Part shown: positions 6,122 to 54,726 of the stretch, piece by piece | How positions within the stretch are numbered: the first letter of the stretch is position 1 | Layout: each line of letters starts with the position of its first letter | Assembly (NCBI GenBank): GCA_964449925.1 | Contig: CAYVCM010000001.1 | Span: 10,306 to 74,305 of the forward strand | Source of the DNA: an uncultured Clostridium sp. | GTDB taxonomy: Bacteria > Bacillota > Clostridia > TANB77 > CAG-508 | Direction: 5' to 3' | DNA length: 64,000 bases | Position numbers and translations under genes: made by a program | The notes under the pieces: generated by a model | What the model saw: only the letters and a program-made list of their open reading frames with translations | Told to the model about the DNA's origin: nothing | The model's database searches: none

Positions 6122-7186
6122 CTAGTTTTCCTTGGAAATTTTTATTTTTCCATTTTTCACAAAAATTTTTAGATTTTTGTTTGGAGTTAAATATTTGTTT
6201 CCAATATTGTTTTCGCATAATTTTATAATATCCTCTATATGTATTGCTTCTATTCCATTTGCTATTTCAAAAAGCCTTGTTATAGTATATATAATTATAT
6301 TAGACTTTATGACTTTTTCTTGCATATTAAATTTTTTTAAGTCTAATACTACTTCATTTTTGTTTTCTTCTAAAACTATTTCATTATATGCTTTTTCTAC
6401 TTGTTTTTGTATATATTCTTGTTCTTCACACATAATCTGTGATAATCTGTTTAGTGTTTTTATGATGTTTGGATTAAATTCTTTTTCTATATATGGAATA
6501 ACAATATTTCGTATTTTGTTTCTTGTATAATTATTTTCAAAATTTGTTTTGTCTATTCTAGGATTTAACCCTTGCTTTGCACAATATTCTTCTATTTCTT
6601 TTCTGTTACATTCTATTAATGGTCTTATATATTGATTTCTTTTAGGTTCAATTCCTTTTAATCCCGCTGTTCCGCTACCTCTTAGAAGATGCATTATAAC
6701 AGTTTCTGCATTATCATTTTGGTTATGTGCAATTGCAATTTTGTTACTTGATGTTTTTTCCATAATTTCGTTGAAAAATTTATATCTTTCTTTTCTTCCG
6801 GCTTCTTCTAGTCCTATTTTATTATTATAGGCAATCTTTTGAACATCTATACTTTTAGAATAAAATTCAATATTGTTTTTTTGACAATAATTTCTTACAT
6901 AATCTTCGTCTTGATTTGCCTCTTCTCTAATCATGTGATTTACATGTGCTACCACTATATTTGAAAAAAAAGTCATACCATTTTGACATTCTTTTTCTGT
7001 TGCCAAAATGGTATGTCCTCTTTGACAATTTTGCTTTTGTATTTTTAGCAAAACATCTAGTAAGCACATTGAATCTGGTCCTCCAGACACACCAATAACT
7101 ATTTTATCTTTTGTTTCAATTAATTTGTATTTTTTTACTGTTTTTAAAACTTTTGTGTAACAGTCTTCTTTTATTCTTTTACTCAT
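6122..7186 (-). CDS. tilS: tRNA(Ile)-lysidine synthetase
   Basis: PP-loop motif SGGPDS near the N-terminus. The gene sits immediately upstream of ftsH, matching the conserved tilS-(hpt)-ftsH neighbourhood. It is a short 354-aa form. Confidence 0.85.
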   Translation of the reverse strand: MSKRIKEDCYTKVLKTVKKYKLIETKDKIVIGVSGGPDSMCLLDVLLKIQKQNCQRGHTILATEKECQNGMTFFSNIVVAHVNHMIREEANQDEDYVRNYCQKNNIEFYSKSIDVQKIAYNNKIGLEEAGRKERYKFFNEIMEKTSSNKIAIAHNQNDNAETVIMHLLRGSGTAGLKGIEPKRNQYIRPLIECNRKEIEEYCAKQGLNPRIDKTNFENNYTRNKIRNIVIPYIEKEFNPNIIKTLNRLSQIMCEEQEYIQKQVEKAYNEIVLEENKNEVVLDLKKFNMQEKVIKSNIIIYTITRLFEIANGIEAIHIEDIIKLCENNIGNKYLTPNKNLKIFVKNGKIKISKEN

Positions 7187-10412: not shown

Positions 10413-10922
10413 TTAACTTTTATGTTTTTTCTCTTTTTTCTTGTAGCTAAATAGTAAGCCTATGCTAATTGCTAATACAATTTGTACTATTCCTATAATT
10501 ACAATTCTGTCATTTCTGTCTAGTCCTGTTGATACTGTAATTATCATATTTGATGTTGAGCTGTTGTCATCTGTGTTTACATCATCATATCCTGCTGGGT
10601 TGTATAGGTCACTTATGATTACTAAGTTTTCTTTTTCTCCAAAGTTGCTGCTTCCTCCCTCACATCTTAATACTATTTCTATTTCTTCATATTCTCCTGG
10701 TTGGATTGTTGTATCTGCTAATGCATCTGTTACTAATACTCCGTTTTTTTCTTCCCATACTATATCATTGTCTTCTTGATAGTATGTGTATCCTGCTGGG
10801 ATTACTTCTACTATTTCTTTTGCTGTTCCTTCTATTTCTCCTGTGTTTGTTACTCTTATTTTGTATGTTATTTTTATGCTTGCTGTTTCTGCTTTTGTTC
10901 TATGGATACTTACCATGTACAT
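10413..10922 (-). pseudogene. C-terminal remnant of an A-type giant surface-protein paralog (DUF11-like domain, sorting signal and TM anchor)
   Basis: The 169-aa ORF aligns with the C-termini of the 36729-45476 A-part and of the 49798-54726 protein. The shared pattern is Y.I.VTN.GE...PGE..E...VL...I.VSTG, then a TM helix, then KKKEKKHKS. It has no N-terminal signal peptide or upstream domains. Confidence 0.55.
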
Positions 10923-11019
10923 TTCATCTTGTGTGTCTATACTTTGTGAGCCTTGACTTATTGCATTTACTGTTGCTTTAAATTTTTGACATGCTTTTTT
11001 ATATTAAAAACAGAAAAAT

Positions 11020-13044
11020 TTAGCTTTCTATTTCTGAAAAATATTCATTAATTCTATTAATTAATTCTTGTTTAGTTTCTTCCATAGTCATACCCTCTAC
11101 CTGTGCTCCAGCCAAAGTTATATGACCACCACCACCTAATTTTTCAAGAATCACTTGTACATTAACATCTCCTATTGACCTTCCACTAATGCAAATTTTA
11201 TTTCCTACTTTTCCCATAACAAATGAAGCTGTTATATCACTAATTGTTAATAGCTCATCTGCTGCTTTAGCACATATCAAACTTGCTTCTTTGTCTTTCT
11301 TTTCATATGTTGCAATAGCTATGGTGTCATTTACAATTTCTGCTTTTTTTACAATAGCTGAAATTTTATTATATGTGTCTAAATCACTTTGGAACCATTT
11401 TTTTACTCTAATAATATTAACTCCACATCTACGCAAATATGCAGCTGCTTCAAAAGTTCTAACACCAGTTTTAAATGTAAAGTTTTTTGTATCCATCATT
11501 ATTCCAGCATATAGACTTTCTGCTTCAATTGTTTTTAAGTCTACATTTACTTCTGCATATTGTAATAATTCTGTTACTAATTCTGCTGCTGATGATGCAT
11601 ATACTTCTTGGAATGTTAATGTTGCATTTTCTATATAATCTGCACTTCTTCTATGATGGTCTATAATTACTATTTTCTCTGTTCTTTTTAATAGTTCTGG
11701 TGCTTCTACATATGTTGTTTTATGTGTATCAAGTACCACAACTAAAGTTTCATTATCTATATTTTCTTCTGCAACTTCTTTTGTGATTAATATGTCTTCA
11801 TATTCAGGATCTTTTTCTAAATCTTCTTTAAAGCTTTGTAATGTACTTGTTTCATCACTGTCAATCACATATGCTTTTTTGCCTAAACTTTTTGCTAATC
11901 TATAAATCCCCATACTTGATCCCATAGAATCGATGTCTGGATTTGTATGACCCATTATCATAACTTTACTTGCATCTTTTATTAAATTTTCTAATGCATG
12001 TGCTACAACTCTTGCCTTTACTTTTGTCCTTCTTGCAACTTCTTGAGCTCTTCCTCCATAAAATTTATAAATCTCGTTTTCTCTAACAACTGCTTGGTCT
12101 CCACCACGACCTAATACAATATCCATAGCAGCTTGTGCAGATCTATATTTTTCTCTGTCTGTTGTTCCATCATTTGATATAGCTATACTTAATGTGATTT
12201 GTACATTTCCTTTTGTCTTTATCTCTTTTACTTTGTCTAAGATACGAAATTTATCTTCTTTCATTTTTTCAAAATATCTTTGTTCAAATAAGTATACATA
12301 TCTATCTCTTTCTGTTTTGATTAATACACCATTTGCTTGGTCTGTCCATTCATATACATATTTATCTATTTCTGCTGTTACTTGTGGTTTTTCTTTGCTT
12401 TCTAGCTGTTGAATGGTATCTTCATAATTATCTATCATAATTATGGTTACACAAGATTTAGAGTCTTTACATTCTTTTTCTAATGTTACTTTTTCTGTTT
12501 CGTCTATAAAATATAACATTATCATGTATTTATCAGCATGTTTCTTATCATATTTTCTAGAATGTACAAATTTTCCTAATACTTCATAATATTTGTTGTT
12601 TATTTCTATATGTTTTTTTATTTCTTTTTCTCTTGACGTGTCTTTTTCAGTTTCTTTTATGTCTAATTGTATGTCTTCTACTAAGTTGTCTAGATATTTG
12701 TTGATATCTATATCACTAAATTCATATGTGAATTTTGCACTTCTCCATATGATGTTTCCGTTTGATTCCATTATTATTAATGGAAATGGTGAGTTTATTA
12801 AACTGCTTTTTGCTGCTGTGTCTGCTGATAATGTTAGGTCTTGCAATGTTTCTGATATTTCGCTTTTTCTTCTATTATTTGTGTAATATGCATATGCTAC
12901 AATAGCAATAAATATTAATATTGATGGTATAATCATGTTGATGTTTTCTATGCATACAATTACAAATAATATGAATATTATTGCTAAGTATATTTTTGTT
13001 TTTGATAATAGTTTATCAAAAATTTTTCTACTGGTATTTTGCAT
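11020..13044 (-). CDS. gdpP: Cyclic-di-AMP phosphodiesterase GdpP (DHH/DHHA1)
   Basis: 674 aa with two N-terminal TM helices, a degenerate GGDEF-like region, a DHH motif (IIDHHRR) and a DHHA1 GGGGH motif. It lies upstream of rplI-dnaB, matching the conserved yybT-rplI-dnaC block. Confidence 0.9.
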   Translation of the reverse strand: MQNTSRKIFDKLLSKTKIYLAIIFILFVIVCIENINMIIPSILIFIAIVAYAYYTNNRRKSEISETLQDLTLSADTAAKSSLINSPFPLIIMESNGNIIWRSAKFTYEFSDIDINKYLDNLVEDIQLDIKETEKDTSREKEIKKHIEINNKYYEVLGKFVHSRKYDKKHADKYMIMLYFIDETEKVTLEKECKDSKSCVTIIMIDNYEDTIQQLESKEKPQVTAEIDKYVYEWTDQANGVLIKTERDRYVYLFEQRYFEKMKEDKFRILDKVKEIKTKGNVQITLSIAISNDGTTDREKYRSAQAAMDIVLGRGGDQAVVRENEIYKFYGGRAQEVARRTKVKARVVAHALENLIKDASKVMIMGHTNPDIDSMGSSMGIYRLAKSLGKKAYVIDSDETSTLQSFKEDLEKDPEYEDILITKEVAEENIDNETLVVVLDTHKTTYVEAPELLKRTEKIVIIDHHRRSADYIENATLTFQEVYASSAAELVTELLQYAEVNVDLKTIEAESLYAGIMMDTKNFTFKTGVRTFEAAAYLRRCGVNIIRVKKWFQSDLDTYNKISAIVKKAEIVNDTIAIATYEKKDKEASLICAKAADELLTISDITASFVMGKVGNKICISGRSIGDVNVQVILEKLGGGGHITLAGAQVEGMTMEETKQELINRINEYFSEIES

Positions 13045-13620: not shown

Positions 13621-16600
13621 TTATTCCATATTTTCTGTGTCTGCAACTTGTTCTAATTCTTTTTCTGTATTAATATGAATACTTTGATATTTTTGCATAC
13701 CTGTTCCTGCTGGAATTAATTTACCAATGATAACATTTTCTTTTAATCCGATTAAGTCATCTACTTTACCTTTAACAGCTGCATCTGTAAGTACTCTTGT
13801 AGTCTCTTGGAATGATGCTGCTGATAAGAAACTATCTGTTGCAAGAGCAGCTTTTGTAATACCAAGTAATACTCTTTTTCCTGTTGCAGGTCTCTTGCCT
13901 TGTGCAACTGCTTCTGCATTTTTATCTTCGAATTCATACATATCAATTAATGAACCTGGGAACATATCTGTATCTGCATTGTCTTCAACTCTTACTTTTT
14001 TAAGCATTTGTCTACCAATAACTTCGATATGTTTATCATTAATGTCAACACCTTGATTTCTATATACTTTTTGCACTTCTGAAATCAAGTATTCGTATAC
14101 TCCTTCTGGTCCTTTTAATGTTAGAATTTCAGATGGGTTTATTGAACCTTCGATTAATGGTTCACCAACTTCTACCATGTCTCCATCTCTTACTTTCATT
14201 TTTGATCCAAATGGAATAGTATATGATTTTGAATTGTCTTTACTTGTAACAATTACTTCTTTCTTTTTCTTTGTTTCTTTAATTTTTACTTTACCTTCAA
14301 TTTCTGAAATGATTGCAAGTCCTTTTGGTTTTCTAGCTTCGAATAATTCTTCTACCCTTGGAAGACCTTGTGTAATATCTGCTACACCTGCTACACCTCC
14401 AGAGTGAATTGTTCTCATTGTAAGCTGTGTACCTGGTTCACCAATAGATTGTGCTGCTATAATACCAATAGCTTCACCAATAGATACTAAATCTCTTCTT
14501 GCTAATCCCATACCATAACATTTTTGGCACACACCATGTTTTGAATGACATCCAAGAACTGAACGCACTTGTAATTTTTCGATTCCAGCTGCTACGATTT
14601 CGTCTGCAATTTTTTCTGTAATCATTGTATTTGAGTCTACAATTAGCTCTTTTGTTTCTGGATTATATACATCTTCAACTGGGAATCTTCCTAGTAATCT
14701 TTCTTGCATTTTTTCAATAACTTGTTGTCCATCTTTAATGTCATATACAATAATTCCTTCACTTGTTCCACAATCATGTTCTCTTACTATAATGTCTTGT
14801 GATACATCAACTAATCTTCTTGTTAAGTATCCAGAGTCGGCTGTTCTTAATGCTGTATCTGAAAGTCCTTTTCTAGCACCATGGGCAGAAATGAAGTACT
14901 CTAATGCGTCTAATCCTTCTGCGAATGATGATTTGATTGGTATTTCTACTGCTTTACCTGTTGTACTTGCCATTAGTCCACGCATACCAGCAATTTGTCT
15001 TAATTGGCTCATATTTCCTCTGGCTCCAGATTTAACCATCATATATATTGGGTTTAATTCATCAAAGTTTTCTTCCATGGCATCACTAACTTTGTTAGTT
15101 GTATCTTCCCATACTTTGATAACTTCTGAGTAACGCTCTTCGTTTGTAATTAAACCTCTTGCAAATTGTTTTCTAATGTTTTCTATTTTTTCATCTGCTT
15201 CATTTAAGAAACCTTTTTTAGCTTCTGGAACTTGTACATCACTCATAGAGAATGTAATACCTGCTAATGTAGAATACTTGAATCCTAGAGCTTTAATATA
15301 ATCTATTACTTCTGCTGATTCTGTTAATCCATGTGTTCTGATTACTCTTTCAATTATATTTCCCATAGATTTTTTCATAACAGGGAAACTAATTTCATAT
15401 TGGAATGGATCTTCTTTTCTATCAATAAATCCTAAATCTTGTGGGATTCCTTGGTTAAAGATAATTCTTCCAACACTTGTTTCTACTTTCTTTGTTTTGA
15501 TTTCACCATCAATTTCTTTAGAAATTCTAACATGAATTTTTGCATGGATTCCTACTTCATGGTTTTCAAATGCCATTAGGGCTTCTTCTGGGTCTTTATA
15601 ATAAGTTCCTTCTCCTTTTTCTCCATCTAATACCATTGTTAAATAGTAGCTTCCTAAAATCATGTCTAGTCTTGGTACTGCAACTGGTTTACCATCTTGT
15701 GGTTTTAGTAAGTTGTTTGTTGAAAGCATTAAATATCTAGATTCTGCTTGTGCTTCTGGTGATAATGGTAAATGTACTGCCATTTGGTCACCGTCAAAGT
15801 CAGCATTGAATGCTTCACATACTAATGGGTGAAGTTTTATGGCTCTACCTTCTACTAATACTGGTTCAAAACTTTGAATTCCTAATCTATGTAGTGTAGG
15901 TGCACGGTTTAACATAACTGGGTGATCTTTTATAACTTCTTCTAATATTCCCCATACTTCTGGTTTTAATCTTTCTACCATTCTTTTTGCATTTTTGATG
16001 TTTTGTGCAATTCCTCTTCCAACTAATTCTCTCATAACAAATGGTTTAAATAATTCAACTGCCATTTCTTTTGGAAGTCCACATTGATAAATTTTAAGTT
16101 CTGGTCCTACTACAATAACAGAACGTCCTGAATAGTCAACACGCTTACCAAGTAAGTTTTGACGGAAACGACCTTGTTTTCCTTTTAATAAATCTGATAA
16201 AGATTTTAATGGTCTGTTTCCAGCACCTGTTACTGGTCTACCTCTTCTTCCATTGTCAATTAGGGCATCTACTGATTCTTGTAACATTCTTTTTTCATTT
16301 CTAACAATGATTTCTGGTGCTCCTAATTCTAATAGTCTTTTTAATCTGTTATTTCTGTTGATAACTCTTCTGTATAAGTCATTTAGGTCTGATGTTGCAA
16401 ATCTACCACCATCTAATTGAACCATAGGTCTTAAATCTGGTGGAATAACTGGGATTACATTCATAATCATCCATTCAGGTCTATTTCCTGAAAGTCTAAA
16501 TGCTTCTACTGTATCTAGTCTTTTTACAAGTTTGCTTTTCTTTTGCTCACTTGCTTTTTCTAGTTCTTTTCTAATTTGTAATGATAGTTTTTCAACATCA

Positions 16601-17148
16601 ATTTGCTCTAATAATTCTCTTAAAGCTTCTGCTCCCATTTTTGCTTTGAATGAACCTCTACCATATTTTTCTTCTGCTTCATGATATTCTTTTTCATTTA
16701 AAACTTGGCATTTTTCTAAATCTGTTGTTCCTTTGTCAATTACTACATAAGAAGCAAAATATATGATTCTTTCTAGGTTTCTTGGTGAAATGTCAAGTAA
16801 TAATGCAATTCTACTTGGTATACCTTTAAAATACCATATATGTGCTACTGGTGCAGCTAATTCGATATGCCCCATTCTTTCTCTTCTGACTTTTGATTTT
16901 GTTACTTCAACACCACATCTGTCACATACTATTCCTTTATATCTAACCCTTTTATATTTACCACAGTGACATTCCCAGTCTTTTGTTGGACCAAATATTC
17001 TTTCACAGAAAAGTCCATCTTTTTCTGGTTTTAGTGTTCTGTAATTAATTGTTTCTGGTTTTTTTACTTCCCCTTTTGACCATTCTCTGATTTTTTCGTC
17101 TGATGCGATTCCAATTTTTAGTTTATCAAAAATATCTAATTCGTCCAC
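13621..17148 (-). CDS. rpoC: DNA-directed RNA polymerase subunit beta-prime
   Basis: Canonical motifs [57 protein letters not shown] and [12 protein letters not shown]. The ORF is open back to 17220, but the conserved N-terminus and a GGGGGA RBS point to a GTG start at 17148. Confidence 0.96.
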
Positions 17149-17245
17149 TTTATTTCCCCCTAAATAAGTTTTTTTAGGTAATTCTAAAACAGTTAAGAGG
17201 TCTGGCCACTGCTGGTGCAATTCCTTTCTGTCGCCTCTTTCCTTT

Positions 17246-17269
17246 TTAGAATTTATTCAATTAATTTTT
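17246..17269. repeat. 24-bp direct repeat, copy A, flanking the rpoB-rpoC insertion
   Basis: TTAGAATTTATTCAATTAATTTTT is identical to 17825-17848. Confidence 0.85.
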
Positions 17270-17752
17270 CAAACTGTTATAAAAACTTTTTCTGTATTCT
17301 TCTATTTTCTCATAGCTTACAATTCCAATTTTAAAAATTATTTGTTCGTTTTGTATTTTATAAATAACATCTGTTTTTACTATACTATCTCTATTTAGAT
17401 TATTTGATTCATCTTTTTCTAATAATTTATTAGTTTTAAACTTTAGTTTATTTAGATTAGATGATACAAGCATACCAAAATTTTCTATTGGAACAGCAGT
17501 ATTATCTTGATCTATTATTACAAAAAAATGATTACTACCTATTTTACCATCAGGATAACTATACTCTCTAACAAAAACAATATCTCCAATTTCATAAGGA
17601 TTATATGATTCATTATTCTCTTTTAGCACATTTTCAATTTTTCCTTTGTGCCATTCTTCCTCAACTGGATATTCTTCAAAAGCATCTTTTAAGTCTTTTA
17701 CTCTTCCATATTCATAAGCGGTTTTTAAAAAATCACTTAATTCTTTTTCCAT
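17261..17752 (-). CDS. Hypothetical protein inserted between rpoB and rpoC, with weak PemK/MazF-like toxin-fold similarity
   Basis: 163-aa ORF with an AAAGGAG RBS 11 nt upstream of the ATG. The segment IGDIVFVREYSYPDGKIGSNHFFVIID resembles the GD-[IV]-x-x-[VA]-x-F...G.E..K.RP.V[VI] N-terminal strand pattern of PemK/MazF/CcdB-fold proteins. There is an extra 50-aa N-terminal extension. Confidence 0.55.
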   Translation of the reverse strand: MEKELSDFLKTAYEYGRVKDLKDAFEEYPVEEEWHKGKIENVLKENNESYNPYEIGDIVFVREYSYPDGKIGSNHFFVIIDQDNTAVPIENFGMLVSSNLNKLKFKTNKLLEKDESNNLNRDSIVKTDVIYKIQNEQIIFKIGIVSYEKIEEYRKSFYNSLKN

Positions 17753-17824
17753 TGATTGTTAGTCTCCTTTCGATTTATTTAATAATAAGTAAACAAAATT
17801 TTTTATAAATAGAGATTTTTCCAT

Positions 17825-17848
17825 TTAGAATTTATTCAATTAATTTTT
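17825..17848. repeat. 24-bp direct repeat, copy B, abutting the rpoB stop codon
   Basis: TTAGAATTTATTCAATTAATTTTT is identical to 17246-17269. Confidence 0.85.
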
Positions 17849-20800
17849 TATATAATATCATTATCAAAATTATCTTCTGCTAAATCACCATCCAAAAGCA
17901 TGTCATCCTCTTCGTCATCTAAGCTTTCAAATAGTTCATCATTGCCATCGTCTAACATATCATCTTCTTCAATTTCTTCTGTATATCCATCTTCTAAATC
18001 TCCATCTTCGACAACAACTTCTTCCTCTTCGTGTTCATATTTTTTGTCTTTTTCTGGATCGTATTCGATGCCTTCTTCTATATTTTCTTTTAGTTCTAGT
18101 TCTTGATTATCTTCAGAGAATAAACGAACATCTAATCCTAAAGATTGTAATTCTTTTACTAGTACTTTAAAGCTTTCTGGAACACCTGGTTCTGGAACAT
18201 TTTCACCTTTTACGATTGCTTCATATGTTTTTACTCTTCCTACTACATCGTCAGATTTAACTGTTAACATTTCTTGTAGTGTATATGATGCACCATATGC
18301 CTCTAATGCCCAAACTTCCATTTCTCCAAAACGTTGTCCACCAAATTGTGCTTTTCCACCTAAAGGTTGTTGTGTTACTAGTGAGTATGGTCCTGTTGAA
18401 CGAGCATGGATTTTGTCGTCTACTAAGTGATGTAGTTTTAACATGTACATAACACCAACTGTAATTGGGCTTGCAAATGGTTCTCCTGTTCTACCATCAT
18501 ATAGTGTTGTTTTTCCATCTTTGTTCATTCCCGCTTCTGCTAATAATTGTTCAACATCTTCTTGTGTTGCACCATCAAATACTGGTGTAGATACATGCCA
18601 TCCTAATGCTTTTGCTGCTCCTCCTAAGTGAACTTCTAGCACTTGTCCTAAGTTCATACGAGATGGAACTCCAAGAGGGTTTAGTAAGATATCAATTGGT
18701 GTACCGTCTGGCATAAATGGCATATCTTCTTCTGGTAATACTCTTGAAATAACACCTTTGTTACCATGTCTACCTGCCATTTTATCTCCGACTGATATTT
18801 TTCTTTTTGTTGCAATATAACATCTAATAATTTGATTAACACCAGGTCCTAATTCATCAGAGTTTTCTCTTGTAAATATTTTAACATCTACAATTGTTCC
18901 TGCTTCTCCATGAGGTACTCTTAGTGAAGTGTCTCTAACTTCTCTTGCTTTTTCTCCAAAGATGGCTCTTAATAGTCTTTCTTCAGCAGTTAATTCTGTT
19001 TCTCCTTTTGGTGTTACTTTTCCAACTAGAATGTCTCCTGGTCTAACTTCTGCACCAATACGGATAATTCCGTTTTCATCTAAGTCTTTTAGTGAGTCAT
19101 CTCCAATGTTTGGAATGTCTCTTGTTATTTCTTCTGCTCCTAGTTTTGTGTCTCTACATTCACAATCATATTCTTCTATATGAATAGATGTAAATACATC
19201 TTCTTTTACTAATCTTTCATTTAAAAGAATCGCGTCTTCGTAGTTGTAACCTTCCCATGTTGAGAATGCAACTAATACATTTTTACCTAAAGCCATTTCT
19301 CCATCTTTAGTTGATGGCCCATCTGCAATGGCATCACCTTTTTTAACTTTTTCACCTTTTTTTACAATTGGTTTTTGATTAATACATGTTCCACCATTTG
19401 TTCTTTTAAATTTGCGTAATTTATGTACAACTGTTTTTCCATTATTATATTTAACTGTAATGCTATCTCCTGTTACTTTTTCAATAACACCATCATCTTC
19501 TGCTAATACTAAAATTCCAGAGTCTTTTGCTGCTCTATATTCAATTCCTGTTCCAACAATTGGACTTTCTGTAATCATTAGAGGTACTGCTTGTCGTTGC
19601 ATGTTTGCACCCATTAGAGCTCTTTTTGCATCATCATGCTCTAAGAATGGAATCATTGCTGCAGCAATTGAAACTAATTGTTTTGGTGAAACATCAACAT
19701 ATTGCACATTATCTTTGTCAACTTCAATTACTTCGTTTTTGTATCTAACTCTAATTCTTGGATTTACAAAACTTCCATCTTTATTAATTGGTTCTGAACT
19801 TTGAGCAATAATATAGTTGTCTTCTACATCTGCACTCATATATTCTACAGTGTCTGTTAATTTATGTGTTTCTGGATCTACTTTTCTGTATGGTGTTTCT
19901 ATAAATCCATATTCATTAATTTGTGCAAATGATGATAAAGCTGAAATTAGTCCTATGTTTGGTCCTTCTGGTGATTCTATTGGACATAGTCTACCATAAT
20001 GTGTATAGTGAATATCACGAACCTCAAAACCTGCTCTATCTCTTGTTAATCCTCCAGGTCCTAATGCAGAAATTCTTCTTTTATGTGTTAATTCTGAAAG
20101 TGGGTTTGTTTGGTCCATAAATTGTGATAATTGTGAACTTCCGAAAAATTCTCTAATTGCTGATGTTATTGGTTTTGTATTAATTAAAGTTTGTGGTGTT
20201 ATTACATCTAAATCTTGGATTGTCATTCTTTCACGAACAACTCTTTCTAATCTAGTTAAACCAATTCTAAATTGATTTTGTAATAATTCTCCAACACAAC
20301 GAATTCTACGGTTTGCTAAGTGGTCAATATCATCTGGTTCTCCTAGTCCATGTGATAAGTTTAATAGATAATTAATAGAAGCTATCATGTCTTCAGTTGT
20401 AATATGTTTTGGTACTAATTCATTTTGTCTTTCTTCTATTATTTTTACTAATTCTTTTTTATCTGTGTTATCTATAATGTCTTTTAATACTTGATAATTT
20501 ACCATTTCTTTAAAGTGTAATTTACTTAAATTTACATCTGGTAATACTTTATGAATGTTAACTGTACCATTTCCAATAATTCTAACTGTTCTTTCTCCTA
20601 CTGTTACATCTACAATGTTAATTCCAGAATTTTGGATGTTTTCTGCTATTTCTTCTGTTATAACTTCTCCTGCTTGTACAAATACTTCTCCTGTTTCATC
20701 ATCTACAACATCTTTAGCTGATACTTTTCCTTTAATTCTTCCTGCTAATGATAATTTTTGATTAAATTTGTATCTACCAACTTTTGCTAAATCATATCTT

Positions 20801-21600
20801 CTGTTATCATAAAATAATCCATTAAATAAATTTTTAGCAGCATCTGCTGTTGGAAGTTCTCCTGGTCTTAATTTTTTATAAATTTCAATTAATGCTTCAT
20901 CTTGATCTTTGATAGTATCTTTATTTAATGTTGCTTTTATTAATTCTTCATCACCAAATAGTTCTAACATTTGTGCATCTGTTGCTACACCGATTGCTCT
21001 TATTAATGTAGTTATTGGCACTTTTCTTGTTCTGTCTACACGAACCCAGAAAATGTCGTTTCCATCTGTTTCATATTCTAGCCATGCACCACGAAGTGGC
21101 ATAACTGTTGATGTATATGTTTTCTTTCCTGTTTTTGTGTCAAATTCTTCATCATAATAACATCCTGGTGAACGAACTAATTGGCTAACTACAACTCTTT
21201 CTGCACCGTTAATAATAAATGTACCACTATCTGTCATTAATGGGAAATCGCCTAAGTAGATTTCTTGTTCTTTGATTTCTCCTGTTTCACGGTTAATTAG
21301 CCTTACTTTTACATGTAATCTTGTAGAGTATGTTGCATCTCTTTCTTTTGCTTCTTCTACTGTGTATTTTGTTTTGTCTTCCATGTAGTAGTCGAAAAAT
21401 TCTAGTACAAGATTTCCTGAATAGTCTTCTATTGGAGAAATGTCTTTTAGTACTTCTCCTAATCCTTCTTCTACAAACCATTCGTAAGAGTCTCTTTGTA
21501 CTTTAATTAAGTTTGGCATTTCGATATAGTCGCCAACTTTTGCGAAATCTTTACGAGAAGTTTTCTCGTATTTCACTTCTTTTAACTTCAAGAAAATCAC
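17848..21600 (-). CDS. rpoB: DNA-directed RNA polymerase subunit beta, with an ~85-aa acidic C-terminal extension
   Basis: 1250 aa with canonical rpoB blocks, for example [15 protein letters not shown] and the rifampicin-cluster region [18 protein letters not shown]. The C-terminus is [53 protein letters not shown]. Confidence 0.97.
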
Positions 21601-22051: not shown

Positions 22052-22639
22052 TTATACATTTGGTTCTTCTACATCTTCTGCTGTTACAACATCTTTTTCA
22101 TAGGCAAATGTTTTTGTGACATTTTCACTAGTCCATTTAGTTACTAGATTTGTTTCTGCATCAACATAAACAACAAAATCATCTAAATTAATTACATATT
22201 GATTTTCTTCTTTCTTCAATGGTTTGTAGATATTTTCAAGTAGTATTAATTTTATTAAATCATCTTTTGAAACATCTGACGTTAATAGCATATTTTGATA
22301 TAATTCTTCTATTTCAAACTCTTCATTTAAAGTTTCTTCACTTTTTATAACCTCTCCTGTATTTGAGTTTATATAAAGTGTACCTTCTAAGTTTTCATCA
22401 ATATAAAAGTTCCAATCATATATACCATCAAGTACATATATTTCTGATTTTGTTGTTTCTTCTTCAGTATTATATCTAGTCGTTTCTTCATAATAATAAT
22501 TGTTTAAAGAATTTTTTACATCTTCTTCTGCTTCACAAATTTTGCTTATAATTGTGTAGTTTCTAATAAGATTTGCCCCTAATAGAATTATTAATATTGC
22601 ACAAATTACTACAATTATTAGTATGATATTTTTTTTCAT
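22052..22639 (-). CDS. Hypothetical membrane-anchored protein (N-terminal TM, acidic extracellular region)
   Basis: 195-aa ORF with the N-terminal hydrophobic segment IILIIVVICAILIILLGA. It has its own terminator. No recognisable domain. Confidence 0.5.
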   Translation of the reverse strand: MKKNIILIIVVICAILIILLGANLIRNYTIISKICEAEEDVKNSLNNYYYEETTRYNTEEETTKSEIYVLDGIYDWNFYIDENLEGTLYINSNTGEVIKSEETLNEEFEIEELYQNMLLTSDVSKDDLIKLILLENIYKPLKKEENQYVINLDDFVVYVDAETNLVTKWTSENVTKTFAYEKDVVTAEDVEEPNV

Positions 22640-22659
22640 ATTTTTATTCCCCCTTTTTT

Positions 22660-22714
22660 ATATATCCTGCATTGTGAGGGTTCCAAGCAGGAACCCTCAC
22701 AATGCAGGATATAT
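22660..22714. terminator. 25-bp perfect GC-rich hairpin between two hypothetical genes
   Basis: ATATATCCTGCATTGTGAGGGTTCC, loop AAGCA, GGAACCCTCACAATGCAGGATATAT. It sits between the stop of 22747-23202 and the start of 22052-22639. Confidence 0.5.
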
Positions 22715-22746
22715 ATATATGGATTGTTAATAAAATCTTCCTATGC

Positions 22747-23202
22747 TTAGCTAAAACTAATTGTTAATTGTTGAAAGTTTCCTACATTGCTTCCTGCTGT
22801 TGTTACAGTATATGTTCCAGCAGGTAACTGTATGTTCATTTTTTGAACATAATACCCATTATCGCATATAAATGGGAAACTCTTAAAATCTCCTGTACTC
22901 TGATTTGTAAACCTCAGAGTAATAACTCCAGAGCTCCCAAAAAGTCCATAGACTCCTGTATAACTTACAGTATCAACGTAACCAGCATTTATTTTAAGTG
23001 TAGTATTCTGTGGATAAATGATACTTCCGTATCCTGTTCCATAGGTAACTGCTTCATTAGAGGAATATGTTACATCATCCTCATCCAAAGTCTTAGCAGA
23101 TACAGGTAATCCACATAAAGTAATACATAATAGCATTGCCAGTGTAACGTTAATTACTCTTTTAATCCGTAGTTTCATAGTAAACATCCTCCTTTTTTCC
23201 AT
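22747..23202 (-). CDS. Hypothetical secreted protein
   Basis: 151 aa. The N-terminal basic and hydrophobic signal peptide ends in ...LCGLPVSA/KT. The mature part is beta-rich and rich in Gly, Thr and Tyr. Confidence 0.55.
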   Translation of the reverse strand: MEKRRMFTMKLRIKRVINVTLAMLLCITLCGLPVSAKTLDEDDVTYSSNEAVTYGTGYGSIIYPQNTTLKINAGYVDTVSYTGVYGLFGSSGVITLRFTNQSTGDFKSFPFICDNGYYVQKMNIQLPAGTYTVTTAGSNVGNFQQLTISFS

Positions 23203-52700: not shown

Positions 52701-54726
52701 CTACTTCTATTTCTTGAGAAACTCTACCTATTTCTTCATTATTTGAATAAGCATTTGCTTTTTCATTTGTATATGTTACATTAATTGATTCAGGTTGTGC
52801 AATTGATGTTTTGTTTACATGAACTGTTGCATCAATGATAATGTTTGCACCTTCTACTGATTGTGATTTATATGAAGTTTGTTCACCTTCCATTTGGATT
52901 GTGATATATCTTCCATCTACTGTATAATTTGCAATTGATAATTCTTCTTCATATAAGACATTTATACTATTTATATCTATACTTTCTACTTGTTCTGGTA
53001 ATTCTATTGTAAATGTTGGGTTTTTGTATAAATCTCTTGATTCTTCATCTGTTTTTAGTATAAGTTTTATTTCAATATCATTTGAAACTACTGTTGATAA
53101 TGTATTTCTACTAAGTTCTAATCTTGTTTCTGTTACTGTTTCATTTAGTCCCATTGAAATCTCTGTTTCAGATTCTATACCTGTTGTATATGTTACTCCA
53201 TTAATAGCTAATTCTTCTAAACTATAATTGTTATATCCATATACAATTTTTGTAGCAATACTTGTTGCTGAACTTACTATACTACTATCTGATGCACCAA
53301 TTGTTTTTGTATGTGTAAATGTTAAACTTCCTTCATTAATTGGTTGTGATGTTTTGATTGTAATTGCTTTTGGATTTCTGTCTGTATAATCAATTACAAT
53401 ATTTCCATCATCGTCTGCTTCTGTTTCACTTGTTATTGTTGCAAGTAATTCATTATCTTCGTTATATATTTCAATTGTTCCTTCTGCACCAAATATGTTG
53501 TCAAAAGTTTCTTTAGAAATAGTTGTTTTATTATAGTATATGTTACTATCTACTTCTCCATTTTCTGATATATATCTACTAGCTTCTTCATTAATATATA
53601 TGTATTCTTCAATGTTTGCTAAATTAATATCTAAAGTTGTTTCACTTGTGTATTGTTTATCAATTCCAGAATATAATTTTCCTTTATATATACTTTCTTC
53701 AGAATTACTTACTGTAACTCCTATTGTAGAGTCAATTTCTTCATTAGATAAAGTAACTGTTCCTGCATTAGATGTCAATTGCTTATCATTTTGTAATGTT
53801 ACAGTTTCCTCTGTTGTGATTTGTACATCATCTAATGTTACACTTGCATCATATATATATGTTAATATGATGTTTTCTTCTCCTTGTCTTTCCCATAAGA
53901 TGGTATCATCTTCTCCTACTTCATTTGTTAATGTGATTTCAACATATCCGTTCTCATATTTATAATCAAATGCTGACATTGTGTTTAAATTAACATCATA
54001 CATAACTTCTGGTGATAGTCCACTAATTTCTGGAGCATTAATTTTTGTATAAATTTCTTTTATTGGATAATTATTATCTTGCAATCCTAAACTTAATGAT
54101 AGTTGGACAATTCTTTTGTCTTCACCATCTATTTTGATTATTTTGTTTGTAATAACTTGTATTTCATTTTTTACATTTTCATTTGTATTTGATTCAGCTA
54201 ATTGCATTGTTACTGTTCTTGTTGCATCAATATTAATATCTTTTTCTGTATTATCTCTATAAATACCTGTTAGTGTTAATTCGCTTTCTATATCTAGCAT
54301 ATCTATATTCATAACTTCTTCATCTATTGGCTCTACTATTACTTCAATTTCTGCTGTTGTTCCAACATCTAATTGATTTAAATAGACAATATTGTCAGAA
54401 ATACTACTTACATATTCACTTTCTGAACTAACAATATTAAAGTTAGAATTTGACAATGCTATTTGTCCTACAAAAAATCCCTCTGTTTTAACATTAACAG
54501 CTAAATACAAAGATATTTCTTGCATATCTGCTGTTCTTTCTAGTGTTGTTGTTGCTTGCCCATCATCATCTTTGAAATAGGCTTCAAATTCTATATTTTT
54601 GTTATTCGTACTAGTTGCATCTGCTGCATAACTAATAAGGCTCGAACCCAAAAATATAAAATTAGTCATAGTTAGTGTCATTATTAAAAGAATAACTACA
54701 CTAATTTTAAAAATCCCTTTTTTCAT
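49798..54726 (-). CDS. A'-type giant surface protein (DUF11 / conserved-repeat-domain and SdrD-B-like repeats; C-terminal SVKTG, TM helix, KRKNSKEEE)
   Basis: 1642 aa. Signal peptide MKKGIFKISVVILLIMTLTMTNFIFLGSSLISYAADA. An acidic linker precedes the SdrD-B-like module ISGYAWYDEDNDGRKSSSE...GITVRLLN. The DUF11-like module reads Y.I.VTN.GE..GYARSIVDYLPSDLEF. GGGAGGT RBS. A paralog of the A-part of 36729-45464. Confidence 0.85.
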   Translation of the reverse strand: MKKGIFKISVVILLIMTLTMTNFIFLGSSLISYAADATSTNNKNIEFEAYFKDDDGQATTTLERTADMQEISLYLAVNVKTEGFFVGQIALSNSNFNIVSSESEYVSSISDNIVYLNQLDVGTTAEIEVIVEPIDEEVMNIDMLDIESELTLTGIYRDNTEKDINIDATRTVTMQLAESNTNENVKNEIQVITNKIIKIDGEDKRIVQLSLSLGLQDNNYPIKEIYTKINAPEISGLSPEVMYDVNLNTMSAFDYKYENGYVEITLTNEVGEDDTILWERQGEENIILTYIYDASVTLDDVQITTEETVTLQNDKQLTSNAGTVTLSNEEIDSTIGVTVSNSEESIYKGKLYSGIDKQYTSETTLDINLANIEEYIYINEEASRYISENGEVDSNIYYNKTTISKETFDNIFGAEGTIEIYNEDNELLATITSETEADDDGNIVIDYTDRNPKAITIKTSQPINEGSLTFTHTKTIGASDSSIVSSATSIATKIVYGYNNYSLEELAINGVTYTTGIESETEISMGLNETVTETRLELSRNTLSTVVSNDIEIKLILKTDEESRDLYKNPTFTIELPEQVESIDINSINVLYEEELSIANYTVDGRYITIQMEGEQTSYKSQSVEGANIIIDATVHVNKTSIAQPESINVTYTNEKANAYSNNEEIGRVSQEIEVVAPKDVTAINTIEALDVETIGEDEETSVSLQRGTDAIQMEVTFEIINNNEEDLNNVYILGTFPTKTDTEENNIDIEIIDGISIENATVYYTENEDATADLEDEENAWTEELTSSTEVKKYLIVMDSIASRTLVGGSYTIEVPQNLEYNQTATEGYAITYTNAGTGTESTVSATDISMETGVGPKLETSISATVGGEELTSSSIVRNGEVIKYCIEVSNVGSEDVSDIAVTGNIPDGTVLVEPVDNYEYTGASYYTEVETNAYGTTIESLAVGEVTYVEYEVMVESDLEEGTSITGTAEINFSDVVQETNELTVTSGTGTLRAMVKRVTDRTVDLYESGTVAYYGIVKNTTSETINNVTVQTNKSDSLQVSRVTIISGVGEDEVSDDDIYIISSDNVPEVSEDDESYATSSEVTSEEIEYSDEINIGTLEPGESKIIEYIMEIGTMPADTDTVEISIVASDGTISHRSNQWIDTVNSFDIEMSMEANTEDGYVKSGDNIIYTIRVNNTSESSTNGLTISDAIPSQLTVQSVTVNGEETDITSNNVEITEEVEANSEMEIVIETVVDYVEGRTEAETITNMATASIYGEEVAETSAINHVIAADVEDDDENTTTGTDTDDGESGNIANGTQMISGYAWYDEDNDGRKSSSESTLSGITVRLLNVETNQLVRNTSGNVLEATTNSNGMYVLENLSDGQYIVIFDYDESTYSLTTYQADGVSDSENSNARTNELLIEGEKQEVASTDIISIESNNVSNINIGLIDLQTFDLKLDKYISRIITQNSTSGTTTREYTDTTTAKIELSSKEMSGTNVVIEYEIVVTNVGEVAGYARSIVDYLPSDLEFSADLNSDWYLSGNYLYTTALSNEIINPGESKTVTLTLTKTMGEDNLVTRNNAEIYEAYNNQGLDDINSTPGNNVSGENDIGYADVIISVKTGTALYISIGVIVAILVVAGVTAGIIVKRKNSKEEE

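Follow-up and report, generated by a model that had tools for sequence, protein, structure and literature searches.

Why does a gene for a MazF/PemK-like protein lie between rpoB and rpoC, the genes for the beta and beta' subunits of RNA polymerase, and how did it come to be bracketed there by a perfect direct repeat? The question is raised by a 64,000-nt stretch of DNA from an uncultured Clostridium sp. (GenBank assembly GCA_964449925.1, contig CAYVCM010000001.1, positions 10,306 to 74,305), here called the window, in which rpoB (17848-21600; stop TAA 17848-17850), a 163-amino-acid (aa) open reading frame (ORF; 17261-17752, stop codon 17261-17263) and rpoC (13621-17148; start GTG 17146-17148) follow one another on the minus strand. 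A preliminary description of this DNA took the 163-aa gene for an acquired passenger, read the repeats as a target-site duplication or recombination scar, and saw no antitoxin gene. We favor, with moderate confidence, a different account: the gene would encode a single-chain antitoxin-toxin that was inherited vertically and relocated from a lysS context into a hot spot between rpoB and rpoC, where the perfect identity of its flanking repeats is of later date. The organisms are uncultured, and what we say of function is inferred from sequence throughout.

The repeat as first noticed is a 24-mer, TTAGAATTTATTCAATTAATTTTT, with exactly two sites in the 64-kb window, 17246-17269 and 17825-17848, and chance occurrence of such a repeat was not seen in 100 shuffles, even with three mismatches allowed. 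The exact match proved to be 25 nt long (17245-17269 and 17824-17848; AAAAATTAATTGAATAAATTCTAAA on the coding minus strand), and similarity extends to 32 nt at 91% identity (17238-17269 and 17817-17848, at a spacing of 579), the exact copies flanking a unique segment of 554 nt. The first base of the upstream copy (17824-17848, minus strand) is the last A of the rpoB stop codon; the downstream copy (17245-17269, minus strand) takes in the two final codons and the stop codon of the 163-aa gene, and a hairpin in the rpoC leader starts with the 3' end of this copy. Between the upstream copy and the gene lies a 71-nt spacer (17753-17823, minus strand) that is carried with the gene and contains the ribosome-binding site AAAGGAG; its stretch GGAAAAATCTCTATTTATAAAAAAT is homologous to the matching spacer in three relatives (L002, L083 and L005), and the ribosome-binding region is similar to that of an orthologue in the lysS context (L019). 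Both repeat copies and the same layout recur in two independent assemblies (ENA ERZ25039390, L081, and Logan SRR7039260, L082), and this identical arrangement excludes an assembly artefact. No terminator-like sites were found between rpoB, the 163-aa gene and rpoC, and promoter-like hexamers occur at background frequency. With all three genes in one orientation, as the preliminary description had it, and no terminator on either side, the 163-aa gene should be co-transcribed with the RNA polymerase genes.

That the gene is an insertion is borne out by an empty site in an outgroup. One metagenome scan with the conserved leader motif, which gave two loci only, yielded a human gut contig (L084) whose rpoB and rpoC proteins are 88% and 90% identical to those of the window and which has no gene between them, the sequence running from rpoB through TAA and ATAAAATAATTAAATAAATTTTAAAAAGG to the leader and rpoC. 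In this contig the homologue of the repeat, AAAATAATTAAATAAATTTTAAAAAGG, begins 3 nt past the rpoB stop and continues into the sequence that follows the downstream copy in the window, and then into rpoC. Full-length rpoC places L084 as an outgroup, at a nucleotide distance of 0.118-0.131 compared with 0.045-0.093 within the insert-bearing group, and because only the repeat sequence and the leader stand between rpoB and rpoC in this outgroup, the gene must be what was added. Since the single copy in L084 directly joins the end of rpoB to the rpoC leader, the repeat is, on this comparison, the native start of the rpoB-rpoC spacer, present in the window on both sides of the insert; its downstream copy is kept in all relatives and in the empty sites.

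The insertion is not a recent one. Among the species-representative loci described below, the gene lies between rpoB and rpoC in 4 of 80, the four closest (L001, L002, L003 and L005), and it does so likewise on two metagenomic contigs (L083 and L085). For rpoC, synonymous divergence (dS) between the window and its relatives at this site is 0.41-0.49, and for the ORF it is about 0.6; with the gene present there in six sister lineages at dS 0.4-0.6, these sequences date the insertion as old and common to the clade. Comparison of the spacer among relatives thus supports insertion through the empty outgroup site and, through the sharing of the gene by six sister lineages, removes the case for a recent arrival. 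All six sister lineages keep the downstream repeat copy with 0-3 mismatches and none has a perfect upstream copy; what follows their rpoB stop is another sequence, about 45 nt long (AAACGAAcTAAATcAGGCATCTTACGTCGTTAATTCGAAAAAG) and in some of them extended into long palindromes. One apparently chimeric contig (L101) was left out of these comparisons, and short-fragment trees with L085 (rpoC) or L093 (rpoB) were distorted by truncated sequence, so that L093 is placed by rpoC 5' distances only.

Nor does the gene appear foreign. Our species survey found relatives in at least 107 species genomes and covered 80 species-representative loci, each from a different assembly. The family forms more than 1000 clusters at 90% identity and is restricted overall (222 representatives among 1.84 billion), its hosts being uncultured low-GC gut Clostridia sampled from humans, rodents, rabbits and ruminants. 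Of the 80 loci, 40 have a gene for a lysS-like class II aminoacyl-tRNA synthetase ahead of it, mostly in the same orientation. Behind it, about a third of the loci have an M50 peptidase gene, tsaD and a gene for a metallophosphoesterase, with tig as a less frequent addition, and at other loci it is placed after ftsH or lepA. The gene tree broadly follows these synteny groups, with the rpoBC-located copies as a terminal cluster nested among lysS-context copies, and the window copy stands at dS 0.6 from the rpoBC-located copies, as against 0.9-1.1 from those in the lysS context. Both the nesting and the smaller dS among rpoBC copies support a single relocation. Selection on the gene is strong, with a dN/dS (ratio of nonsynonymous to synonymous divergence) of 0.05-0.08 beside 0.03-0.05 for rpoC, and no second copy was seen in the 80 loci, within the limits set by the incompleteness of metagenome-assembled genomes. 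Searches of plasmid and phage collections by tblastn gave no match to the fused gene, and among family members the split relatives alone, which we describe below, were found on viral or conjugative DNA. The patchy, mobile distribution that is a trait of type II toxin-antitoxins is not what we see, the fused form being syntenic over the 80 species loci. By these comparisons the gene is a resident, constrained gene of its lineage that was relocated, not a foreign passenger. Its ancestral position would have been just downstream of the lysS-like gene, where it would have been inherited vertically under strong constraint until, in one genus-level clade, it moved into the rpoB-rpoC spacer, behind the rpoB stop and ahead of the structured leader of rpoC.

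What, then, does the gene encode? The resemblance to MazF and PemK that had been suspected in its central segment holds at the level of family, profile and predicted structure. Pfam PemK_toxin (PF02452) matches residues 56-155 with E = 3.3e-5 and 24.5 bits, above a cutoff of 23.1 (family relatives score up to 37.8 bits), and the family profile finds Staphylococcus aureus MazF (E = 0.004) and Bacillus subtilis EndoA in the Protein Data Bank (PDB). An AlphaFold2 (AF2) model built on a diverse alignment has a mean predicted local distance difference test score (pLDDT) of 82, mostly 83-95 in the toxin domain, and supersedes an earlier run on a shallow alignment (pLDDT 66); its top 50 Foldseek matches in the PDB are all MazF-family toxins (probability 1.00, target-normalized TM 0.77-0.80, rmsd about 2.8 Å). 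According to this model, residues 56-163, encoded at 17264-17587 on the minus strand, adopt the MazF/CcdB-type SH3-like barrel fold. The 163-aa protein has no match in NCBIfam or PADLOC.

The active site departs from that of known MazF toxins. We take the catalytic residues of MazF to be Arg and Thr, Arg25 and Thr48 in B. subtilis MazF; the profile alignment to S. aureus MazF sets the invariant His75 (codon at 17528-17530) at the position of the Arg (GGVRPV in S. aureus, GSNHFF in the window) and the invariant Ser97 at that of the Thr, which leaves the window protein with neither canonical residue. His75 and Ser97 are at least 90% conserved across the wider family, toxin-only members included. 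The active site, altered yet conserved, may still be functional, and we infer that residues 56-163 form an endoribonuclease that uses His75 and Ser97. The protein may thus work like a MazF toxin-antitoxin, but because it lacks the catalytic Arg we do not call it a canonical MazF.

The missing antitoxin appears to be part of the same chain. As the preliminary description stated, the ORF list of the window holds no separate antitoxin gene beside the 163-aa gene; the acidic N-terminal domain that it had set aside as an extra, however, is homologous to a gene that stands in the antitoxin position in toxin-only relatives. This N-terminal module, codons 1-55 (17588-17752, minus strand), matches the toxin domain in conservation and has the invariant motif AFxEyPxExEWHkG and invariant residues F8, A24, F25, E27, P29, E33, W34, H35, G37 and E40. 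Toxin-only relatives of 111-130 aa, found in the representative search, align from about residue 51 on, and we examined the genomic context of four of them. A 54-55-aa ORF lies 7 nt upstream of the toxin P0283 (L086-L088) and 11 nt upstream of P0269 (L094) and overlaps the toxin gene by 11 nt at P0322 (L089 and L090); P0296 (L097) is a solo toxin beside conjugation genes. Two IMG/VR viral contigs have the same layout of small ORF and toxin, and across the toxin-only and viral loci the small ORFs lie 1-11 nt upstream of the toxin or overlap it. Their products are homologous to residues ~3-46 of the window protein: BLASTP of the window N-terminus against the L089 small ORF gives E = 1e-7, and hhalign of the N-terminal alignment (A2) gives E = 8.6e-7 against the L089 small ORF, 2.6e-8 against that of L094, and 6e-7 (probability 92%) against the partner alignment (A6).

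One polypeptide of the window therefore joins a PemK domain to a homologue of the free-standing partner, and the window gene is most simply read as a two-gene module that has been fused, its upstream partner having become the N-terminal domain. Such a fusion would account for the missing antitoxin gene, because the partner from the antitoxin position is present as residues 1-55. The module also occurs in other arrangements: P0270 combines a RelB antitoxin DNA-binding domain, the module and a PemK toxin, in P0229 the module and PemK are followed by an HTH_3 domain, P0245 has two tandem copies of the module, and the long N-terminal regions of P0236 and P0252 seem to contain it twice. In these five proteins the module behaves as a portable unit. 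A suspected likeness of the module to the C-terminal tails of MazE and EndoAI found no support in Pfam or PDB searches and was not used.

Known systems offer partial parallels for such an arrangement. The MazF/PemK/EndoA toxins (S. aureus MazF, 4MZM and 2MF2; B. subtilis EndoA/MazF, 1NE8 and 4MDX) are like window residues 56-163 by Pfam, profile and predicted fold, and Ser97 stands where their catalytic Thr does, whereas the window protein is only about 20% identical to them, has His75 for the catalytic Arg, carries the fused 55-residue N-terminal module without a separate mazE gene or an NCBIfam match, and is encoded by a gene that is single-copy and syntenic, not scattered. Natural single-chain toxin-antitoxins are known in EzeT of Escherichia coli (PMC4826407) and CapRel SJ46 (PMC9712102), for which neutralization in cis has been demonstrated. 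Like the window protein, these hold in one chain a toxin domain and a partner that is separate elsewhere, and need no second gene; their toxin folds (zeta kinase and toxSAS) are unrelated to it, the antitoxin part of CapRel is C-terminal whereas the window module is N-terminal, and cis-neutralization, shown for them, is attributed to the window protein by analogy. An engineered polypeptide of a MazE fragment and MazF ("zymoxin") is inactive until cleaved (PMC3281143), and there a MazF-fold nuclease covalently joined to an inhibitory partner peptide embodies the mechanism that we propose, although the construct is artificial, is made of E. coli MazE and MazF, and is unrelated to the window protein in module order and sequence. 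Closest are the two-gene modules of the same family (L086, L089, L094, L102 and L103), each with a small protein of 54-57 aa and a MazF-like toxin of 114-130 aa; the toxins are 36-48% identical to window residues ~51-162 and the small proteins match residues ~3-46, but these modules are split into two genes, some of them on viral contigs, and their small protein has no Pfam family.

From these parallels we would place the window protein as a single-chain member of an uncharacterized, split family of MazF-like modules. In the mechanism that we envisage, residues 1-55 would neutralize the toxin by holding the nuclease domain inactive in cis, and proteolysis, or the binding of a ligand to the module, would release the domain. 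The role of the protein could be that of a regulated RNase, a domesticated housekeeping factor or a phage sensor.

The perfect identity of the two repeat copies calls for an explanation of its own, since an insertion this old should have left a mark on them. An unselected 25-nt copy on the window branch is expected to carry about five substitutions, and the probability of none is about 1%, or about 8% at half the synonymous rate; it is therefore unlikely that 25 bases passively escaped mutation after the shared insertion event, which tells against a passively preserved scar. Probably the perfect identity is specific to the window lineage and younger than the insertion, or has been kept by conversion or selection; gene conversion, a later local rearrangement in the window lineage and selection on both copies are all possible causes. 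Compared with L001, L002 and L003, the window lacks about 35 nt at the 3' junction, a deletion that joins the end of the ORF to the repeat, and its upstream copy can be aligned with the post-rpoB element of the sister lineages in two registers that are about equally good. The right flank of the insert in the sister lineages (AAAGAATAAAAAATAAAATTAAC...) may retain an ancestral rpoB terminus (GAAGAATAA in L084, L091 and L092), which would put the original breakpoint inside rpoB; the match is suggestive only, being short and AT-rich and, in L093, overlapping the end of the HepT coding sequence. A AAGAATAA-like string is also found just upstream of the downstream repeat copy in the sister lineages and may represent the old end of rpoB, displaced by the insertion.

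Against this background we weighed the history of a foreign solo toxin gene brought recently into rpoBC by a mobile element, with the 24- or 25-bp repeats as the target-site duplication of that element. Such an event would explain an exact repeat that brackets the gene, a single copy in the empty site at the position of the upstream copy, and a window free of the sequences resembling miniature inverted-repeat transposable elements (MITEs) that blur the region in sister lineages. We nevertheless regard it as very improbable, and it is largely refuted by the age of the shared site. In addition, the gene is closest not to plasmid or phage genes but to chromosomal orthologues from the same bacterial family; apart from the 163-aa gene the insert encodes nothing, neither transposase nor integrase, and it has no convincing terminal inverted repeats at its ends; the copies lack the roughly five substitutions just mentioned; and, to our knowledge, 25 bp exceeds the duplications made by known transposases. 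We therefore do not read the insert as a transposable element with target-site duplication, and the repeats are probably not the untouched duplication that they had seemed to be. No GTTRRRY-type core of an integron or attC-like cassette was seen by eye, and no search for an integrase was made.

The rpoB-rpoC spacer has been a place of repeated exchange. Further junctions, found by looking up homologues of the rpoB C-terminus, mark it as a recombination hot spot: among sequences less than 10% apart in rpoC nucleotides it can be empty, filled with MITE-like DNA, or occupied by at least three different cargos, two of them of toxin-antitoxin type. In L091 and L092 there is no gene, and the rpoB stop is separated from the repeat and leader by palindromic MITE-like DNA. 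L093 (1633-2912) has the post-rpoB element, repeat and leader of its ORF-bearing relatives and, between them, a 103-aa ORF without a Pfam family, an MNT nucleotidyltransferase gene and a HepT RNase gene; this MNT-HepT (HEPN/MNT) pair occupies the same site with proteins unrelated to the window protein and is itself absent from the window. By its rpoC 5' region L093 nests in the ORF-bearing clade (distance 0.052 to L001, compared with 0.100 and 0.130 to outgroups), and its cargo has therefore most likely been replaced. In L100 (1777-2200) the conserved post-rpoB element is followed by a gene for an ABC-type P-loop ATPase, after which the contig ends before rpoC; its rpoB tail has the highest local identity to the window among the interpretable contigs (90% over 84% of the query). 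L001 has, between rpoB and the MazF-like gene, an extra 138-aa ORF (1424-1840) that is membrane-anchored, with an N-terminal hydrophobic segment and no Pfam family. Palindromic MITE-like elements lie just upstream of the rpoC start or after the rpoB stop in relatives (L001 ~2560-2680; L005 ~6590-6730; L085 ~2800-2930; L093 ~2810-2900; L091 3825-3990; L092 3410-3580).

A more ambitious version of our account can be built on these junctions, in which the spacer is a cassette-exchange site bounded by the post-rpoB element and the rpoC leader, toxin-type genes, namely the fused MazF-like gene, MNT-HepT and a P-loop ATPase gene, have repeatedly been placed in it, and the 163-aa protein is a domesticated single-chain MazE/MazF-like zymogen that acts as an RNA-cutting switch made in fixed proportion to RNA polymerase. 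We regard this version as possible, though on the whole doubtful.

Several observations weigh against the single-chain antitoxin-toxin and the later date of its perfect repeat. Nuclease activity, toxicity and inhibition in cis are all deduced, and with a His in place of the catalytic Arg the domain may bind RNA without cutting it. The antitoxin role of the module rests on gene position, fusion partners and analogy; searches of Pfam and the PDB with the module alone gave chance matches only and no detectable known antitoxin family, and AF2, with a pLDDT of 53-82 over the module, places it with moderate confidence. A toxin-antitoxin would not usually show strong purifying selection, a single copy and housekeeping synteny, which fit a domesticated housekeeping function equally well. 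As to history, members of the rpoBC clade may still have a second copy at the lysS locus, in which case duplication would stand in for relocation, and the order of the window and L002 within the clade has a bootstrap of only 77-79%, a weak rooting. The upstream copy in the window lies exactly at the position of the single copy in the empty site, which speaks against a purely secondary origin, and the MITE-like sequences that sister lineages have at the upstream position are absent from the 64 kb of the window, which could mean that the window keeps an original duplication that the other lineages lost.

One alternative is a domesticated housekeeping RNase or RNA-binding factor, in which the module would be a permanent part of the protein, serving for example in substrate or ribosome binding, and the gene would act in RNA metabolism. 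Constraint similar to that on rpoC, occurrence at 80 loci that each come from a different species genome, conserved synteny beside the lysS-like gene, ftsH, lepA, tsaD and tig, a gene tree that broadly tracks the synteny groups, the loss of the canonical Arg to His, and the many invariant residues of the module all agree with it. Yet the nearest relatives are ordinary two-gene modules, some of them on viral contigs or beside conjugation genes, other relatives have RelB or HTH_3, DNA-binding domains of antitoxins, fused to them, and the MNT-HepT pair at the same site in a sister lineage suggests selfish or defense cargo, and we therefore judge a housekeeping role unlikely, if far from negligible. 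That cargo, with the P-loop ATPase gene as another occupant of the site, in turn speaks for an anti-phage abortive-infection sensor-effector like CapRel, whose module would sense a phage product and unleash the nuclease, the spacer then being a miniature defense island. Fused toxin-antitoxins are known as phage sensors (PMC9712102), and two-gene relatives do occur on IMG/VR viral contigs. We think this improbable, given the lack of a PADLOC match, a strength of conservation and stability of synteny over more than 100 species that are atypical of fast-turnover defense genes, and the absence of other defense genes flanking the gene in its ancestral lysS-like context. Least credible, to the point of being hardly worth entertaining, is the idea, raised in the preliminary description, of an RNA polymerase accessory subunit or associated factor whose position between rpoB and rpoC reflects physical association. 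It draws only on the position of the gene in this clade and its likely co-transcription, whereas 76 of the 80 species-representative loci have the orthologue away from rpoBC, fold and nearest relatives are those of MazF toxins, and unrelated cargo occupies the same site in sister lineages.

If the mechanism that we favor, inhibition of a MazF-fold nuclease by its own N-terminal module, is true, the gene represents a natural single-chain MazF-type toxin-antitoxin of an uncharacterized family, with a partner module that has no known relatives, and its housekeeping-level constraint in more than 100 gut species bears on the purpose of chromosomal toxin-antitoxins. Placement in rpoBC, together with other toxin-type cargo in sister species, would then show that exchangeable genes can be accommodated even in the most conserved operon of the cell, and the rpoB-rpoC site would be a tractable locus for studying how such genes come to be inserted while an essential transcript stays intact.

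The rpoC leader contains a candidate for a new regulatory or processing element. A conserved hairpin of about 74 nt upstream of rpoC (17180-17253, minus strand) consists of a basal stem (AAUUCUAAAAAGG paired with CUGUUUUAGAAUU), an inner stem (AAGAGG with CCUCUU) and an apical stem. RNAalifold, applied to nine sequences (the window, six insert-bearing relatives and spacers without a gene), finds 25 pairs, 6 of them with compensatory changes, and 98.6% of cells are paired on the consensus structure; six covarying pairs were reached in 1 of 500 shuffles, and slid controls gave 0-2. The window hairpin has a minimum free energy of -20.9 kcal/mol (z = -2.87). A search of Rfam found no family for the spacer, including 17180-17253, the only matches being chance hits to miRNA models elsewhere in the region. 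Because no U-tract follows the hairpin it is no intrinsic terminator, and it may be a processing or regulatory element. The 5' strand of its basal stem is the last 9 nt of the downstream repeat copy, and the leader is therefore complete behind the insert owing to the duplication of the repeat sequence.

The rpoC proteins of relatives are 92-97% identical to that of the window; the start of rpoC listed with the ORFs, TTG at 17220, was rejected in favor of the GTG at 17148, which is preceded by GGGGGAAATAAA and is conserved in relatives together with its ribosome-binding site (GGGGGAAATAAAGTG, GGGGG). Relatives are 92-95% identical in rpoB (tblastn), and the homologues carry the Pfam domains RNA_pol_Rpb2_6 and Rpb2_7. 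The window rpoB ends in a long acidic, low-complexity tail of about 100 aa (17851-18150), whose last residues are ...DNDII in the insert-bearing clade and ...EE in outgroups.

In its wider surroundings rpoBC lacks its usual neighbors. Upstream, two ORFs of 195 and 151 aa without a Pfam match (22052-23202) replace rplJ-rplL, and between them lies a near-perfect long hairpin (22652-22722; ATATATATCCTGCATTGTGAGGGTTCC...GGAACCCTCACAATGCAGGATATATA) for which Rfam returned chance matches to miRNA models only. Downstream, at 10413-13044, a gene for a GdpP-like c-di-AMP phosphodiesterase replaces the usual rpsL-rpsG-fusA. Farther away, the minus strand carries three very large consecutive ORFs of 2915, 1323 and 1642 aa (36729-54726).

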